Origin: Thermodesulfobacteriota bacterium
Lineage (GTDB): Bacteria; Desulfobacterota_D; UBA1144; Nemesobacterales; Mycalebacteriaceae
Reading direction: 5' to 3'
NCBI GenBank assembly: GCA_965198945.1
Contig: CBDAQI010000004.1
Coordinates: 77,230-141,229 of the forward strand
DNA length: 64,000 bases
How positions within the stretch are numbered: position 1 is the first letter of the stretch; every line of letters begins with the position of its first letter. Below are positions 43,727 through 50,857 of this stretch, piece after piece. A model generated the notes under the pieces. That model saw nothing but the letters and a program-made list of their open reading frames with translations, had not been told where the DNA came from and did not search any database. The translations under genes and the position numbers were made by a program.

Positions 43727-44476
43727 ACGACGGCGGCGCGAAAACATAAAAAGCCGCACCGCACCGAAAACAATCAGTCCGAAAGCCAGAACCTGTGCGA
43801 CGGAAAGTCCGTCTATCGGGCTCGGAGTTGTTGTTCTGATGAACTCAACGAAAAATCGCTCAATCCCGGCAAGTGTTATGTAAACGGCAAAAAGCCACCC
43901 CTCGGGCGCGGGTCTACGGCGCAGTTTCCAAAGTATTATAAAAACTCCGGTCATTGAAAGTGTTTCATATATTTGTGTCGGGTGAACTGTGTGATATACG
44001 GGCGGGTAGCCGTCGGGAAAAGCCATGGCCCAGGGCAGTGAAGACGCCGTTCCGTAATCATCACCGACGAGCAGGCAGCCGACCCTTCCTATCGCATATG
44101 CGATTGCGAGTGCGGGAGCGGTGGCGTCAAGGGTTTTCCAGACACCCGCTTTGTGTTTGCGCGCACAGTAAATTCCGGCCGCAAGTCCGCCCAGAAAGCC
44201 GCCGTAAAAAGTGAGTCCGTTCCGGGAGAAAATAAGTTCGGAGGGGTTTGCCGCCAGTTGCTCAAAAGTGAAATTTTGCAGCAGAAAAAAAAGTTTTGCA
44301 CCCGCTACCGAACAAATGACTATCCACAAAATCATGTCTTCCGCAAGTTTCGGAGGCGCGTTTTTTCTCTTCAGTTCACGGGCCGTTATGAGGTATGCGG
44401 ATAGAAATGCGAGAGCCACCATCACACCGAAAGAGTTGATTGAAAAACTCCCAACCGTTAGCAGTTCGGGATACAT
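43721..44476 (-). CDS. lgt: Prolipoprotein diacylglyceryl transferase
   Basis: MYPEL, GLTFYGG, AIGRVGC, HPTQIYE, RFFVEFIR. Confidence 0.95.
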   Translation of the reverse strand: MYPELLTVGSFSINSFGVMVALAFLSAYLITARELKRKNAPPKLAEDMILWIVICSVAGAKLFFLLQNFTFEQLAANPSELIFSRNGLTFYGGFLGGLAAGIYCARKHKAGVWKTLDATAPALAIAYAIGRVGCLLVGDDYGTASSLPWAMAFPDGYPPVYHTVHPTQIYETLSMTGVFIILWKLRRRPAPEGWLFAVYITLAGIERFFVEFIRTTTPSPIDGLSVAQVLAFGLIVFGAVRLFMFSRRRRS

Positions 44477-44702
44477 CAGCGTTTGTTTTCCCTGGTTTTT
44501 TCGTCCGCAGTTTTTTCCGCCCGCGTATTTGATTTTTCAAGCAGAAAAACTGAAATAAAAAAACAGACGCATAGCGCCATGTTTAAAAAGAAAAGCTGAG
44601 TGAATGTCATTTCAAAAGACATTTATATCTTTTAACCCGGTTTTTTTCAAACATGTCTTTGATTTTTGTAATAGTTTTTGTCTGACTGTAGACTTCCCCG
44701 TA

Positions 44703-45311
44703 ATGTTGGGTTCTCCGGTTCTTGTTTTAAACAAAAACTACCTGCCCGTCTCCGTAACCAATTTAAGGCGGGCGTTCATAATGCTTTACTGTGGCGAGGC
44801 AAAAGCCGTTTCGGAGAAATATGAGACTTTTGATTTTGACAGTTGGGCAGATATTTCGGCCGCCGCTTCTGCGGGTCTGAAGGGCGACTACATACGAACG
44901 GTTACAAAAATCATAAAAGCGCCCAGGGTTATCATTCTTCTCCGTTACGGCGGTTTTTACAGAAAGCGTCCGAAATTCAACCGTTTCAACATATTTCGCA
45001 GAGACGGCGGAAAGTGCCAATACTGCGGTCGCGCTTTTCCGAAGAGCGATCTTACAATTGACCATGTAACTCCCCGTGCGCTCGGAGGCACAAGCAGATG
45101 GAACAATGTTGTTTGTTCATGCGCTTCCTGCAACCGCAGAAAAGGCGGAAGAACCCCGGAGCAGGCCGGAATGAAGCTGCTGACAAAACCGGTTGAACCC
45201 CAATGGGGCCCTTTTGCGGGAATGTATGCGCGCGCCGTACGCTACAAAGAGTGGGAACCGTTTGTGAACTTTGTTGACGCTTCGTATTGGAACGTTGAGC
45301 TTGAAGGGTGA
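44703..45311 (+). CDS. HNH endonuclease (McrA-like family)
   Basis: VLVLNKNY...NIFRRDGGKCQYCG...LTIDHVTPRALGG..WNNVVCSCASCNRRKGGRTPEQAGM. Confidence 0.92.
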   Translation: MLGSPVLVLNKNYLPVSVTNLRRAFIMLYCGEAKAVSEKYETFDFDSWADISAAASAGLKGDYIRTVTKIIKAPRVIILLRYGGFYRKRPKFNRFNIFRRDGGKCQYCGRAFPKSDLTIDHVTPRALGGTSRWNNVVCSCASCNRRKGGRTPEQAGMKLLTKPVEPQWGPFAGMYARAVRYKEWEPFVNFVDASYWNVELEG

Positions 45312-45570
45312 GACCGGCCCACGCGATTTTTCTTTCTGTCTGCGTCACTTTCATAAAAGAGTAATGGCGCCTCTTTTTCTCATACAGTCCTAAAGACAGG
45401 CTCAGTAAATCGGTGAGCAATCCTTAAAACATAGCCGTCATACAATCTGAAAGGTCTTTTTTTAACAGTCTTATTAACAGGTAAAAAACGAGAAAATGTT
45501 TGTAAAATTGTTGACTTTGAAGACCGTTAATATATGTTGTGCCTCAATAATTTCGAATTTTGGAGAAAAA

Positions 45571-46830
45571 ATGACCTTTAAAGAATTGGACAGTCTTATA
45601 AAAGAGGCCGGATACCGTGGCACAAGTGACCTCAGCGGCTCCCACATCACTATTCAAACGATAGATCAATTTGGAGAAATTTTCGCCGCCGGAATTTCAG
45701 AAGAGCTAAGAAAACAATTCTCAGACAGCCTGCCAAAATCTTCTTCCGAGGATGTTCTGCGAGAATTGGCGGATTACGTTTACGGCTCATGCTATGTAAA
45801 AGAAATTTTCCCCGTCAAAGTAAAAATGAGAAAGCCTTTATCCAGGCTTGCCGTGGAATATATAAACAAAGTTTTTCCTCTCAAAGCAAAAGCAGTTTCG
45901 GAACATAATGTGGTGATTGACAAAGACATTGTTTTTGGACCTTCGGCTTCTCCGCAAATTATCAATGCCGACACATTAACGTTTGACGGTGGTTCCATAA
46001 CAGCTGTCACTACAAGTTTAAGCATAAATGCAAATAAGTTGATCATAACAGGTAAGAGCAGTTCCAATCCTTATCATGTCGGAGTTTTTGGACGGAAAGG
46101 TTCGGACGGCGCAGACGGCAATCCCGGCAAGCATTACACTTCCCCCGCTGTGGCGGGTCATGACAGCAGTGCCCCCACACCGGGCATATGCACTGGTGCG
46201 AGTAATGGCGGCAAAGGAGATAATGGTCTTAAAGGATTTCCGGGGGAGGACGGCAAAGACGGAAAAGACGGCCAGCCCAACATGCCGGCCAATATTTCTA
46301 TTGCTGATATGGGAGACAAATCCAAAGAGATGCCCGTTTTCTGTCCTTCTTGCGGTACGGCTAATGTTGTCATTCTTGATACTGAAACCGCAAACTTTGT
46401 TGTCAGCACTTATTCGGGCGCGGGTGGCGCCGGCGGGATTGGACAGACAGGCGGCAATGGCGGAAATGGTTGCCGCACCGGCTGCGAAGGCACCGACGGG
46501 GGCCAGGCCGGCGATGGCGGTGACGGCGGTGATGGGGGCAACGGCGGCAACGGCGGCAATGGCGCTTCGGGCAACCCGATCACAATTACGTTCCCGATAA
46601 AAGACAAGAATTATCTGCAGACAGTCAGCACAACTGCGCCGCTGGGTTCCGGAGGCGACGAAGGCCGGGCCGGAGTCGGCGGCGATGGCGGTACGGGCGG
46701 TGCGGGAGGCAAGCATAAGACCAACGGGTCGTCCGGCGGACAGGGAAAATACGGTGAAAAAGGTAAAAAGGGCGCGGACGGAACAAGACCGGGCGCTCCG
46801 GGCAATATCGTATTTCATTACACTCCATGA
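45571..46830 (+). CDS. Glycine-rich (Gly-X-X / Gly-Gly-X repeat) protein 1
   Basis: GGAGA RBS before ATG 45571; GSDGADGNPG, GEDGKDGKDG, GDGGDGGDGGNGGNGGNG; no signal peptide. Confidence 0.8.
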   Translation: MTFKELDSLIKEAGYRGTSDLSGSHITIQTIDQFGEIFAAGISEELRKQFSDSLPKSSSEDVLRELADYVYGSCYVKEIFPVKVKMRKPLSRLAVEYINKVFPLKAKAVSEHNVVIDKDIVFGPSASPQIINADTLTFDGGSITAVTTSLSINANKLIITGKSSSNPYHVGVFGRKGSDGADGNPGKHYTSPAVAGHDSSAPTPGICTGASNGGKGDNGLKGFPGEDGKDGKDGQPNMPANISIADMGDKSKEMPVFCPSCGTANVVILDTETANFVVSTYSGAGGAGGIGQTGGNGGNGCRTGCEGTDGGQAGDGGDGGDGGNGGNGGNGASGNPITITFPIKDKNYLQTVSTTAPLGSGGDEGRAGVGGDGGTGGAGGKHKTNGSSGGQGKYGEKGKKGADGTRPGAPGNIVFHYTP

Positions 46831-46870
46831 TTTCCCGGTTCGTTATGAAGTTTTTTATCAGAATTGACTA

Positions 46871-48133
46871 ATGGAATTCTTATACGACTCTGTTGCGGGA
46901 AAATCCGGCCCCTGGGGTTATGGGGTCCACCACGAAGAGATTCCCACACTTGAAAGGGCAAAAGAATTACTTGGCCCGAAAAACGATGAAATACGAAAAA
47001 AACGCAGCAGCGTTTATTACAATTCAAAAAACATCAGAATAAGAAGTCGCCTGCCGATTGGGATGCACGACAGATGTGAAGAATATGTTTTTGCGGGTGG
47101 AAAAATTCATGAAAAGGATGCCCGCCAGCTTAAAAAACATTTTCCCATACAGCTGAAAATTATTCGCCTTCCGGAACACACCATATGGGAAAATCAAACC
47201 TGTGATATAAGCAACAACCACAAAGACTGGACTGAGATAAGTCCCGAAAAGGAACTATATACCTATCTTCATGTTGATAAACTAGTCGTCGCACCCGGAG
47301 CAAGAATTGTTATTTACGGCAATGTGCTTGTTTTTCACTGTGGGGAAATAGTTCTGGATATGTCTTCATCCAAGAAAGATTATCCTGAAATGAAAATCCG
47401 GAGAATGCATGATTTTAGTGTTGATATCTTCGGAACGAAACACTCAGGGCTTGGCAGTGTTCGCCTCCTTCAGGCAAAAGACGGCAGACACGGATTTGAT
47501 GGCAGAAACCAAAATCAAGTGAATCCCGCTGATGATGTTGTTCCGAGCATTTTTGGCCCCTTGGATATTGAAAAATTATATGACTGTGATCAAAGCCGTA
47601 TTCATAAGCCCCGACCAAAAAATGGTGAAAACGGTTTTCGTGGTGAAGACGGTTCTGACGGACAAAACGGCGGCATGTTGCAGTTGGCGAATATAACGAT
47701 ACACAAATTAACAAATTTTCGGGACAGACGTTTCAGGATATTTGCCCAGGCCGGACAGGGACGAAATGGCGGCGATGGCGGCGATGGCGGCAACGGCGGA
47801 CTGCCTTCCAATATTTTTGTTCAAATCCCCCAAGCCTACTCTGATCGTCTTTCTTTAATTTCTCAGGCATCCGTGGGGGGCAGAGGAGGTCTTCCGGGTC
47901 AGGGAGGGCTTAAGGGGAAATCTTACAATACTGATACTGCGGAAAAAGTGCCGCGAAATGGAAAATCCGGGACGGCCGGAATAAACGGTAAAGACCGGGA
48001 GGCCGTGCCTATCTATGTCACGCACCAGACACAACAAATAAACAAGGAGGTTTCATATCTTGAGAAGGCGGTGGATCAAATAAAGAAAAAATTTGAACCG
48101 CAGAACGGGCAAGACGAGTTTCGTCTGTTGTGA
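46871..48133 (+). CDS. Glycine-rich protein 2, apparent paralog of protein 1
   Basis: GENGFRGEDGSDGQNGG, GRNGGDGGDGGNGG, GKSGTAGINGKD; same segment order as protein 1. Confidence 0.8.
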   Translation: MEFLYDSVAGKSGPWGYGVHHEEIPTLERAKELLGPKNDEIRKKRSSVYYNSKNIRIRSRLPIGMHDRCEEYVFAGGKIHEKDARQLKKHFPIQLKIIRLPEHTIWENQTCDISNNHKDWTEISPEKELYTYLHVDKLVVAPGARIVIYGNVLVFHCGEIVLDMSSSKKDYPEMKIRRMHDFSVDIFGTKHSGLGSVRLLQAKDGRHGFDGRNQNQVNPADDVVPSIFGPLDIEKLYDCDQSRIHKPRPKNGENGFRGEDGSDGQNGGMLQLANITIHKLTNFRDRRFRIFAQAGQGRNGGDGGDGGNGGLPSNIFVQIPQAYSDRLSLISQASVGGRGGLPGQGGLKGKSYNTDTAEKVPRNGKSGTAGINGKDREAVPIYVTHQTQQINKEVSYLEKAVDQIKKKFEPQNGQDEFRLL

Positions 48134-48152
48134 GCAATAGGAGAAATTTGAA

Positions 48153-48821
48153 ATGGCAAGAAAAATCTTTATGTCATATAAACATAGTGATAGTGACGTC
48201 CATCCTTTAAATGGCGAAACAACTGCTCGTGTATATGTTGACAATCTAATTGAATTGTTTGAAGGAGATGAAATTTACAAGGGAGAAGGAGATGAAGATT
48301 TGAGTGATTTTCAAGATGAGACTATTGCATCTCACTTGAGGGACAAAATATACGACTCCAGCATGACCATCATTTTAATTTCTCCGCAGATCAAAGACCC
48401 TGCCCAAAGAGACAGCGACCAATGGATACCCTGGGAAATTGCCTATTCTCTTAAGGAAATTACTCGGAATGACCGCACAAGCAAAACAAATGCTACGCTA
48501 GCAATTGTTTTGCCAGATGGAAACTCATCTTACACTTACTATCTTGAGGAAAATACTTGTCAGTCCTGTCATTGCAGACTTCTGAAAACTCACACTCTCT
48601 TTCAAATTATGAGAGATAATATGTTTAATCAAAAAAACCCTACTTATTCAGGCTGTCTGAATCATCCCTCAGGGACTGTTTATAAGGGAGATTCTTGCTA
48701 TATTTACTCAGTCAAGTGGTCTGATTTAATAAGTGATAAGGACAAATACCTTTGCACTGCTGAGCGTATAAAAGAGAACATTGGCGATTACAAGATAGTA
48801 AAGGAAGTTAAAGATGGATGA
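48153..48821 (+). CDS. TIR-domain protein (ThsB/DUF1863-like) 1
   Basis: RKIFMSYKHSD, KIYDSSMTIILISP, WIPWEIAYSL with catalytic Glu. Confidence 0.88.
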   Translation: MARKIFMSYKHSDSDVHPLNGETTARVYVDNLIELFEGDEIYKGEGDEDLSDFQDETIASHLRDKIYDSSMTIILISPQIKDPAQRDSDQWIPWEIAYSLKEITRNDRTSKTNATLAIVLPDGNSSYTYYLEENTCQSCHCRLLKTHTLFQIMRDNMFNQKNPTYSGCLNHPSGTVYKGDSCYIYSVKWSDLISDKDKYLCTAERIKENIGDYKIVKEVKDG

Positions 48822-49293
48822 CAAATCACAAGTAGTAAAACATCTTGAAATGATTCAAGGTGTTGTTAACCGCTTGAGTCATGATTTTTTTCTAATCAAA
48901 GGTTGGAGTATGACCTTGCTGGTCGGTGGGATAATTTTCATAACAAGAAATGAAATTCAAACTTATTGGTTTATCTGTGCATTTCTTATTCCCGTAATCG
49001 GCTTTTGGATTTTAGACGGATATTTTTTATGGCAAGAGCGTTTGTTTCGTGATGTCTATAACGACTTCAGAAAGAGAAAAATTACAGACTTTGAAATGAA
49101 TCCGATGAAGCATGAAAACAGTTGGGTTTTATTTGCTTTATGGATGATTACTCTTGGCAAGAAACATTCAGATAAGCCAAGACGTAGTTGGTTATCTTCA
49201 ATTTTTTCAGTAACGCTGAACATGTTTTATGGAATTGAGATTTTGTTTGTGGCAGGGGTATTTTTTATTCTCAAGTATCAAGGAAGTTATTGA
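48814..49293 (+). CDS. Multi-pass transmembrane protein, putative TIR-associated effector
   Basis: HLEMIQGVVNRL..DFFLIKGWSMTLL, FWILDGYFLWQERLFRDVY, SWLSSIFSVTLNMFY; 3-4 hydrophobic helices. Confidence 0.8.
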   Translation: MDDKSQVVKHLEMIQGVVNRLSHDFFLIKGWSMTLLVGGIIFITRNEIQTYWFICAFLIPVIGFWILDGYFLWQERLFRDVYNDFRKRKITDFEMNPMKHENSWVLFALWMITLGKKHSDKPRRSWLSSIFSVTLNMFYGIEILFVAGVFFILKYQGSY

Positions 49294-49296
49294 ACA

Positions 49297-49899
49297 ATGA
49301 GAAGGGTGTTTTTCAGTTTTGACTGGGATGATGTTTGGAGAGCAAATCAAGTTCGTAATAGTTGGGTTGCAAAAAGAAGTTATAAGATTGCGGGATTTAG
49401 AGACGTTGCTGAAATTGAAAAAGTTAAAAGACATTCAGACAAAGAAATAAAAAATTGGATAGACAAACAAATGAAAGGCACATCAGTTACTTGTGTTTTG
49501 ATTGGTAGCAAAACAAACAAAAGCAAGTGGGTGAAATATGAAGTAGAGAAAAGCATTGAAAAAGGAAACGGACTTTTTGGAATACTCATTCATAACTTGA
49601 AAAACCCTGAAGGGAAAACTGATAAACAAGGGGAAAATATGCTTGAAGAGTTTAACAAAGAAGAAAATTTCGGAGCAAAAGTCAAAAAAGCTTTTGTAGG
49701 CGGAGGTGTAGGGTTGTGGCTTGCAAGACTTGTATTTCCTCAATTTACCATTCCGTTGACTTTCATGGGTGCTGTTCTCGGATTAAGCAAATCAGATGAT
49801 AGTGGTGATGACTACAAAATTTATGATTGGTTTGACGATAATGGATATGAGAACCTCGGCGACTGGATAGAGAAGTCTGCCCAGCAGGTTGGAAGATAA
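49297..49899 (+). CDS. TIR-domain protein (ThsB/DUF1863-like) 2 with hydrophobic insertion
   Basis: RRVFFSFDWDDVWRANQVRNSW, IKNWIDKQMKGTSVTCVLIG, KWVKYEV, YDWFDDNGYENLGDWIE. Confidence 0.92.
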   Translation: MRRVFFSFDWDDVWRANQVRNSWVAKRSYKIAGFRDVAEIEKVKRHSDKEIKNWIDKQMKGTSVTCVLIGSKTNKSKWVKYEVEKSIEKGNGLFGILIHNLKNPEGKTDKQGENMLEEFNKEENFGAKVKKAFVGGGVGLWLARLVFPQFTIPLTFMGAVLGLSKSDDSGDDYKIYDWFDDNGYENLGDWIEKSAQQVGR

Positions 49900-49912
49900 T
49901 GGGAGGTTAGAG

Positions 49913-50413
49913 ATGGCACCAAAGAGGCAAGTTTTTTACAGTTTTCATTACCAACCGGATAGTTGGCGAGCCTCACAAGTTCGCAATATAGGTGTTGTTG
50001 AAGGGAATGAACCTGCTTCTGATAATGATTGGGAGAAAATCAAGAAAGGTGGTGAGAATTCGATTAAAAGATGGATAAACGAACAGATGAAATATAGGTC
50101 ATGCACTGTTGTTCTCGTTGGAACAAATACTGCAGATAGAAAATGGATTGATTACGAAATACGCAAGTCATGGAATGGTAATATGGGTGTTGTCGGCATA
50201 TACATTCATGGATTGAAAGACCAAGAAGGTCAATTATCTTTTCAGGGAAAGAATCCTTTTGATTTCATTACTTTTACATCTGGCAAAAAAATGTCTTCAA
50301 TAGTTAAGTGTTACAATCCTCAGGGATTGAACAGCAAAGAAAAATATGATTGGATTTCAAGGCATTTGTCTAATGCAATTGAAGAGGCTATTCGAATAAG
50401 GAGAGGTTATTAG
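49913..50413 (+). CDS. TIR-domain protein (ThsB/DUF1863-like) 3
   Basis: GGAGG RBS; RQVFYSFHYQPDSWRASQVRNIG, SDNDWE, IKRWINEQMKYRSCTVVLVG, RKWIDYEI, GKNPF. Confidence 0.93.
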   Translation: MAPKRQVFYSFHYQPDSWRASQVRNIGVVEGNEPASDNDWEKIKKGGENSIKRWINEQMKYRSCTVVLVGTNTADRKWIDYEIRKSWNGNMGVVGIYIHGLKDQEGQLSFQGKNPFDFITFTSGKKMSSIVKCYNPQGLNSKEKYDWISRHLSNAIEEAIRIRRGY

Positions 50414-50820
50414 TATTCAACCATGACATTATTTCTATGCCACTCTAAAGATGAAGGATCTGGCAAAGTTTTTGAGTGGGTGGAGAGTCTAATCTGTTTG
50501 CTTTTATAGGCGGCAAGTGATGAATTTTCTTTTATCTCTACGATTCTTTCTGGAACCAAAATGCAATATTTCTTGTCTATACAAAACATTCCTCTGTCAA
50601 AAGCCCAGTGATGTTTGCGGCAGGCATAGGGCAAGCCCGTTTCTAATATCATCCGTGCCAGAGCATCTTTTCGGCACAATCGGCACAATATGAGCGGCTT
50701 CAGTTTCATGAAATCTGGCTAAATCAACCAACGAGTCATTACACATGCAACATTGGTGGTCATACAGATTCAAAACAAGGTTGCGAAAATCGGCTGACCG
50801 TTTGACACTCCGCCCCTTTC
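50410..50820 (-). pseudogene. 5'-truncated, frameshifted HNH (HNH_2-type) restriction nuclease remnant
   Basis: RSADFRNLVLNLYDHQCCMC...EAAHIVP...GTDDIRNGLALC / RKHHWAFDRGMF...LEWHR; 4-bp duplication near 50620, 9-bp duplication at 50672-50689. Confidence 0.85.
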
Positions 50821-50857
50821 TATGGCATAATTCCCTGCTTCGCGCAGGGTAGTAACA

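Follow-up and report, generated by a model that had tools for sequence, protein, structure and literature searches.

Seven new types of the Thoeris defence system are reported as validated in a December 2025 preprint by Yirmiya et al. (bioRxiv 10.64898/2025.12.03.692087), and two of them use small membrane proteins as effectors. In type V, a TIR protein is paired with ThsF, 'annotated as PF10028, DUF2270', which has three membrane helices, is activated directly by 3' cyclic ADP-ribose (3'cADPR) and, in the authors' model, forms a ring of seven protomers with basic pockets between them; one type V variant is not triggered by 3'cADPR. In type VII, the partner is ThsH, a SLATT membrane effector responding to cyclic ADP-ribose (cADPR). 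According to the preprint, systems of both types protect from phages and are toxic upon supply of the signal, and type II combines ThsB with a Macro-domain membrane effector and histidine-ADP-ribose (His-ADPR). Here, we compare with these systems a cassette found at positions 48153-50413 of a 64,000-nucleotide stretch (hereafter the window) of contig CBDAQI010000004.1 from a Thermodesulfobacteriota bacterium. The cassette encodes three TIR proteins and one small membrane protein (TM).

Three TIR genes around one small membrane protein

We interpret the locus as a Thoeris-type TIR signalling defence cassette in which the small three-helix inner-membrane protein, of the family PDC-M50A, would be the effector in place of the SIR2-SLOG protein ThsA. 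We give this reading a probability of about 0.72. The locus most likely belongs, as a member with three sensors, to the type V-like group of Thoeris systems, which associate TIR proteins with a three-helix effector. Its four genes are the following (window coordinates, from the list of open reading frames, ORFs).

48153-48821, + strand: TIR1, 222 aa, ThsB-type TIR with a Cys-rich C-terminal half, motif WIPWEI
48814-49293, + strand: membrane protein (TM), 159 aa, three-helix, PDC-M50A family, predicted effector
49297-49899, + strand: TIR2, 200 aa, ThsB-type TIR, motif WVKYEV, with a hydrophobic insertion of about 45 aa
49913-50413, + strand: TIR3, 166 aa from the ATG, ThsB-type TIR, motif WIDYEI

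A first-pass annotation, made from the letters of this DNA, had described four packed and co-oriented genes in this order, and the ORF list agrees: TIR1 and TM overlap by 8 bp, TM and TIR2 are 3 bp apart, and TIR2 and TIR3 are 13 bp apart. TIR3 could alternatively start at a TTG at 49889, but we favor the ATG at 49913 because its orthologues begin with MA(T/K)KRQVFYSF.

The three TIR proteins pass the cut-off of the Pfam family ThsB_TIR (PF08937, 21.2 bits), with 25.3 bits for TIR1 (E 2e-5), 84.8 bits for TIR2 (E 6e-24) and 99.0 bits for TIR3 (E 2.2e-28), and they are the only matches to this family in the genome. In PADLOC, they match different ThsB models, PDLC00428 for TIR1 (E 8.7e-77), PDLC00431 for TIR2 (E 1e-57) and PDLC00433 for TIR3 (E 1.5e-71). 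The model PDC-M50B is matched by TIR2 (E 2.2e-54) and TIR3 (E 8.2e-66), and by TIR1 only with an E of 0.0032. The three proteins are members of three distinct ThsB-type subfamilies. The catalytic Glu that the first-pass annotation had assigned to each of them is present in the expected motifs, and all 14 aligned TIR sequences, drawn from the three subfamilies, have the Glu of WxxxE. The locus thus shares with Thoeris systems in general the presence of ThsB-type TIRs that keep the catalytic Glu, accompanied by a conserved candidate effector. Among 77 loci obtained by scanning species-representative genomes, 19 have an orthologue of TIR1 (around 67% identity) directly 5' of the TM gene, and orthologues of TIR3 occur in other loci with phmmer E-values down to 4e-86.

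TIR2 has a peculiarity: its ThsB TIR domain is interrupted at approximately residues 120-165 by the insertion mentioned above, which includes two short hydrophobic stretches. This insertion is common to 4 of 23 TIR2-type sequences, those of the window, of a locus from the same genus (L123) and of two metagenome-assembled genomes (MAGs) of Nitrospirales (L062 and L068). It is possibly a membrane hairpin, and it may tether TIR2 to the membrane beside its effector. The AlphaFold2 (AF2) model gives the insertion a predicted local distance difference test (pLDDT) value below 50, so no structural claim rests on that model.

The membrane protein has three hydrophobic segments (residues 25-44, 48-73 and 129-155), and its AF2 model (mean pLDDT 70.9) contains helices at 3-46, 51-87 and 133-157. 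It lacks any match to a Pfam family, even at E<=10, and to an NCBIfam family. It does match the PADLOC model PDC-M50A PDLC04686 (E 6.3e-32, residues 3-150 on model positions 3-129 of 134) and three more PDC-M50A models (E 2.8e-28 to 2.5e-14). Both component models of the PADLOC candidate system PDC-M50 (PDC-M50A and PDC-M50B) are therefore matched by the locus, in adjacent genes of the same strand, and on these matches the locus is already catalogued and represents no new class of system. The two differ in that PDC-M50 is a two-component candidate, whereas the window locus has three TIRs, one of which, TIR1, fits a separate ThsB model. The name 'PDC-M50' was not found in the literature searched. 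The first-pass annotation had proposed a new variant in which the TIR signal gates a small membrane effector, with the caution that related loci might already be catalogued. The caution was justified, and the claim of novelty falls with the PADLOC match and the published types V and VII, but gating of the membrane protein is the best-supported reading of the locus.

Could a classical effector be encoded elsewhere? The first-pass annotation had noted the lack of SIR2-SLOG and TM-Macro effectors at the locus, and had considered that a distant ThsA might account for the TIRs. We searched the genome (1,387,051 bases, 14 contigs, 95.28% complete) with profiles in six frames and found no such gene. 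The domains SIR2_2 and Macro were absent from the genome, and the same searches gave matches in control genomes (in 8 of 14 for Macro). There was also no match in the genome to STALD, to the PADLOC ThsA model PDLC00410 or to SLOG cluster 2, but these negatives count for less because their controls gave no match either.

The alignment of the TM family shows residues that are invariant or nearly so: Q15, R20, K29, D68, Y70, E75, R76, R79, Y82, R86, T91, D92 and F93. They map to the N-terminal helix, to the inner end of helix 2 and to the basic helix that follows, forming a mostly basic predicted cytoplasmic face. In our proposed mechanism, each of the three TIRs would sense a different phage cue, which would widen the range of phages detected. 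On infection, the TIRs would convert NAD+ (nicotinamide adenine dinucleotide) into a signal derived from ADP-ribose, most likely, by analogy with validated relatives, a cyclic isomer such as 3'cADPR. The signal would bind this conserved cytoplasmic face, whereupon the membrane protein would oligomerise or open, breach the membrane and abort the infection. If one effector serves three TIRs, these must make the same signal or cross-acting signals. The new messenger that had been contemplated for this locus found no support; in the validated systems closest to this one, the signal is 3'cADPR or cADPR. Structure prediction of a four-copy homo-oligomer of the membrane protein scored 0.18 for a mark of 0.42, which speaks neither for nor against oligomerisation.

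Structural and embedding comparisons of the membrane protein gave few leads. A Foldseek search of the AF2 model against the PDB returned no match at E<=0.001. A wider VIA-align search returned generic long-helix matches only, the best of which (Z 10.2, rmsd, i.e. root-mean-square deviation, 5.7, 124 aligned residues) is below the level that is informative for helical models. In a protein atlas, the clusters nearest to the protein are all unnamed and the nearest named one, 8xMP at 0.87, is a lead only.

Among the published systems, type V is the closest in layout, since there too a TIR gene adjoins that of a small protein with three membrane helices and no soluble domain; it has one TIR and the window locus three. 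Type VII shares the principle of a TIR signal acting directly on a small membrane-spanning effector devoid of enzymatic domain, but the window protein has no SLATT match in Pfam at E<=10, and the 25 families that 137 relatives match most often include no SLATT family. With type II, the locus would share the principle that the product of a TIR triggers an effector which disrupts the membrane; it differs by the lack of a Macro domain, in the membrane protein as in the genome. Type I is set apart by its SIR2-SLOG ThsA, for which we found no counterpart in this genome, within the limits of completeness and of the silent ThsA control given above. Finally, type XI couples ThsB with a hydrolase effector, ThsL. 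Genes with HIT domains adjoin the TIR-TM pair on two of six inspected plasmids (L084 and L087), but none of the eight proteins of the window locus has a HIT match in Pfam.

A widespread membrane family with interchangeable TIR partners

The family of the membrane protein is very large. A profile search among 1.84 billion representative proteins gave 4593 matches at E<=0.001, of which 2627 reach E<=1e-10. Among sequences clustered at 90%, there were 1058 matches, and none of the 120 matches listed has a Pfam domain. The usual length is 135-145 aa. Relatives are present in 130 plasmid records. Within the genus and the order of the source genome, the family is found in one of five other same-genus genomes and in two of 25 same-order genomes, a patchy presence that fits an accessory gene. 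The great majority of the closest relatives (loci L004-L080) are from MAGs labelled Poribacteria, Binatia, Nitrospirales, Latescibacterota and Limisphaerales, and one is from a Methylococcales that lives as a sponge symbiont. Two or more copies are present in several genomes, for example OZ246887.1 (L007 and L032).

Co-occurrence with TIR genes had been singled out in the first-pass annotation as a way to assess the pairing, and it proved frequent. Counting as partners the TIR1-, TIR2- or TIR3-like genes on the same strand at a distance of up to 300 bp, the TM gene has a TIR neighbor in 47 of the 77 loci. A TIR gene is also adjacent in 10 of 12 loci of the Neobacillus family, where the partner is of the CAP12/Pycsar-effector type, in 4 of 4 loci from relatives of the source genome, and on all six inspected plasmids, which belong to Priestia, Klebsiella, Streptomyces, Deinococcus, Halorhabdus and Haladaptatus. 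This pairing goes far beyond chance because it recurs across phyla. The gene orders in the 77 loci were distributed as follows.

TM alone: 30 loci
TM-TIR2: 15 loci
TIR1-TM: 13 loci
TM-TIR3: 5 loci
TM-TIR2-TIR3: 5 loci
TIR1-TM-TIR2: 3 loci
TIR1-TM-TIR3: 2 loci
TIR3-TM: 2 loci
TIR3-TM-TIR2: 1 locus
TIR1-TM-TIR2-TIR3: 1 locus (L005, with the order of the window)

The TM gene is thus the constant element of these loci, and the TIRs are its modular, interchangeable partners. Two of the 30 loci without a partner by our definition have a CAP12/Pycsar-type TIR directly downstream, and two others have a TIR_2 protein at around 0.7 kb.

Fusions also provide information on the role of the membrane protein. 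In one protein (P0264), the TM module is fused behind a SLOG cluster 2 domain (PF18163, E 1.7e-15), an arrangement with a ligand sensor first and an effector after it. The constancy of the TM gene among interchangeable TIRs and the fusion of its module to SLOG both support the prediction that the membrane protein is the effector. Two proteins of 362-378 aa, P0264 and P0193, carry the module behind an N-terminal domain of around 230 aa, and in P0389 the module is followed by a 170-aa C-terminal extension of no known family. We have not used as Rosetta-stone evidence a fusion between TIR1 and the membrane protein (P0388, 388 aa), because it is a single metagenomic sequence, with a 62-aa linker unlike either parent, and may be a frameshift artefact.

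Weighing the effector reading

Several observations weigh against the interpretation of the locus as a Thoeris-type cassette with a membrane effector. PADLOC's 145 PDC systems are phage defence candidates derived from guilt-by-embedding, and their authors describe them as untested (bioRxiv 10.1101/2024.01.29.577857). The window membrane protein has no match to PF10028, the family to which ThsF is assigned, even at E<=10, and the TM family shows no detectable relation to canonical DUF2270 proteins (hhalign probability 6%). Scans of the cassette for promoters and terminators gave counts equal to those of shuffled sequence, so its operon structure rests on spacing alone. In around 26 of the 77 loci, there is no TIR within 1.6 kb of the TM gene. 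When five genomes bearing such orphan genes were searched whole, three had no ThsB_TIR match and two of these three had no TIR_2 match either, which means that the TM gene can persist without a detectable TIR. Finally, the window protein has at residues 101-118 (approximately; 49114-49167) an in-frame insertion of 18 aa, partly hydrophobic, that none of 24 aligned homologues shares and that the copy of the same genus (a match of 137 codons) also lacks; it might have impaired the protein. A tandem duplication was considered as the origin of this insertion and rejected, since no supporting DNA repeat was found.

The mismatch with PF10028 raises the question of the relation between PDC-M50A and ThsF. 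Among 137 diverse relatives of the membrane protein, the Pfam families most often reached at E<=1 were DUF3278 (29), PF10028 (18) and 8xMP (9). Of all Pfam families, only PF10028 is reached by a member at the gathering score: its cut-off of 25.0 bits is attained by one of 138 representatives (25.2 bits), the close relatives of which have no PF10028 annotation, and by none of three plasmid proteins. Of 401 Pseudomonadota genomes, 22 have a gene encoding a canonical DUF2270 protein, matched over its full length (E 1e-56 to 1e-69) in an ORF of around 235 aa, and none of these 22 genes has a TIR gene within 1.5 kb. Computation on four of these proteins gave one to three hydrophobic segments above the threshold; one of them seems, when read by eye, to have four. 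The PDC-M50A models match canonical DUF2270 in only two of 14 cases, with a best E of 0.013. When 269 genomes of the Neobacillus family were searched, the only match to PF10028 was a broken one of 58 aa, and the PDC-M50A-type family gave 21 matches, 19 of which at E<=9e-35. We think it more probable than not that the TIR-linked 'DUF2270' effector of the preprint belongs to the PDC-M50A family, a judgement made from these family profiles. Literature searches for ThsF or type V Thoeris, and for DUF2270 together with TIR, retrieved only that preprint (bioRxiv 10.64898/2025.12.03.692087).

Alternatively, PDC-M50A may be a separate candidate Thoeris effector, distinct from type V, with a ligand of its own and very widespread, as it comprises thousands of clusters at 50% identity in bacteria and archaea. 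In the window locus, ThsB proteins of three unrelated subfamilies, one apparently tethered to the membrane, would then converge on it. We regard this as a minority possibility. If it were true, the many TIR-less copies would point to triggering in trans or by a signal that does not come from a TIR.

A different division of labor is conceivable, in which the TIRs are the effectors, as NADases that deplete NAD+, and the membrane protein is a sensor, an anchor or a regulator, for instance one that reports the perturbation of the membrane by phages. The CAP12/Pycsar-effector type of the TIRs in the Neobacillus-family loci would fit such a role, as would the hydrophobic insertion of TIR2 if it places this protein at the membrane. 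Yet, TIR2 and TIR3 fit ThsB and PDC-M50B models, i.e. those of signalling-type TIRs, the association of several TIR subfamilies with one constant membrane protein fits better many sensors converging on one effector, and in some proteins the TM module follows a SLOG ligand-binding domain on its C-terminal side, the place of an effector. We thus consider this division of labor improbable.

The orphan TM genes suggest still another explanation, that the membrane protein is a self-sufficient module of abortive infection, akin to a toxin, and that its adjacency to TIRs results from travelling together in hotspots. TIR-less TM genes are often in or beside type I restriction-modification (R-M), Shedu, Schlafen/AlbA_2, AAA_21 or Cap15 genes, which, together with the two genomes devoid of ThsB_TIR and TIR_2 matches, speaks for such a module; some are beside metabolic genes. 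However, co-travel hardly explains the tight same-strand adjacency, exemplified by the spacings of the window, nor its recurrence with different TIR families from Enterobacteria to haloarchaea, and the orphans may be remnants or respond to TIRs missed by the hidden Markov models (HMMs) that we used. This explanation is therefore very unlikely in our view. Some orphan genes are embedded between subunits of type I or III R-M systems (L007, L070, L010, L011 and L037) and one of these adjoins the Shedu gene SduA; embedding of this type matches the guilt-by-embedding route that led to PADLOC's PDC candidates.

The idea that the cassette is a decaying remnant, no longer functional, which could draw on the unique 18-aa insertion and on the clear truncation of the neighboring HNH gene, is equally hard to sustain given that the four reading frames are intact with their conserved motifs, that all family-invariant residues are kept in the membrane protein, and that the insertion is in frame and sits in the loop that links the cytoplasmic helix to the third membrane helix.

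A defence hotspot and the reach of the family

The surroundings of the cassette include the following features.

45312-50795, no strand: variable interval (defence hotspot) between the lgt-HNH block and rplU-rpmA
44604-45311: upstream HNH gene, 2.8 kb from the cassette
50410-50709, - strand: truncated remnant of an HNH restriction-endonuclease-like gene, context outside the system

The lgt-HNH block (43751-45312) and the rplU-rpmA genes (from 50795) are kept in five of five same-genus genomes. The interval between these flanks spans 3.8-10.8 kb in the congeners, has different gene contents and shows no DNA similarity to the cassette. In the four congeners where the interval is contiguous, it contains an AAA_15/AAA_21 ATPase with a CAP12-type TIR, type III R-M systems in which unknown genes are embedded (three genomes), a D12 methylase with a transposase fragment, and RloB with AAA_21. 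The presence of other defence systems at the same place in 4 of 4 contiguous congeners indicates that the cassette occupies a genus-level defence hotspot. It makes up the right half of the interval, which is poor in guanine and cytosine (GC): the GC content is 0.37-0.38 at 48-50 kb, against around 0.45-0.54 across most of the window.

The first-pass annotation had already placed the cassette in a defence island, on the grounds that HNH genes flank it. The island is upheld by the comparison with the congeners, but the HNH genes are not what reveals it. The upstream one is conserved with lgt in all five same-genus genomes and is a conserved flank, rather than cargo of the island. The downstream one is an ORF of 99 aa that corresponds to only the C-terminal third of a phosphorothioate (PT)-DNA-binding HNH restriction-endonuclease-like gene (positions 215-282 of 284 in NF045808, and 208-273 of 286 in the PADLOC HNH model PDLC04132). 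The whole remnant (50410-50800, - strand) is apparently frameshifted, with an upstream HNH-like stretch in another frame that runs into rplU. A near-consensus sigma-70-like promoter lies immediately after the hotspot, at 50802-50831 on the + strand and 27 bp upstream of rplU (TTGACA, 18 nt, TG-CATAAT, 11 of 12 positions).

Two further genes of the hotspot precede TIR1 on the + strand, at 45496-46830 (444 aa) and 46871-48133 (420 aa), with gaps of 40 bp between them and 19 bp to TIR1. Both encode glycine-rich proteins with collagen-like GxDGxDG and GGNGGNG runs, which match no family in Pfam or PADLOC and reach only a sub-threshold hit in NCBIfam (SclB-like, E 8.5e-4). We considered them as members of the system and rejected this, because the loci compared contain no homologue of either. 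In the same-genus hotspot L127 (G673:C1:903300-907150), the genes encode three proteins: an ATPase (AAA_15/AAA_21), an unknown one of 154 aa, and one of 288 aa whose C-terminal domain is a TIR of the CAP12/Pycsar type; this set may be another TIR-based system.

Overall, if our interpretation is correct, the design that associates TIRs with a tiny membrane effector extends to a reduced genome of 1.4 Mb, in a form with three sensors and one effector. What is new is limited to the composition of the cassette, to the 18-aa insertion in the predicted effector and to the possible hydrophobic hairpin of TIR2. The results also expose a problem of nomenclature. The PDC-M50A family is huge and linked to TIRs in bacteria and archaea, yet standard HMMs do not recognise it as DUF2270, whereas the canonical DUF2270 genes, the namesake of the type V effector, are not linked to TIRs. 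Whether or not ThsF is a PDC-M50A protein thus decides the annotation of a large share of Thoeris-like loci. Finally, the TM copies devoid of TIRs and the subclade of TIRs with a putative membrane hairpin provide small leads on how these effectors may be triggered.

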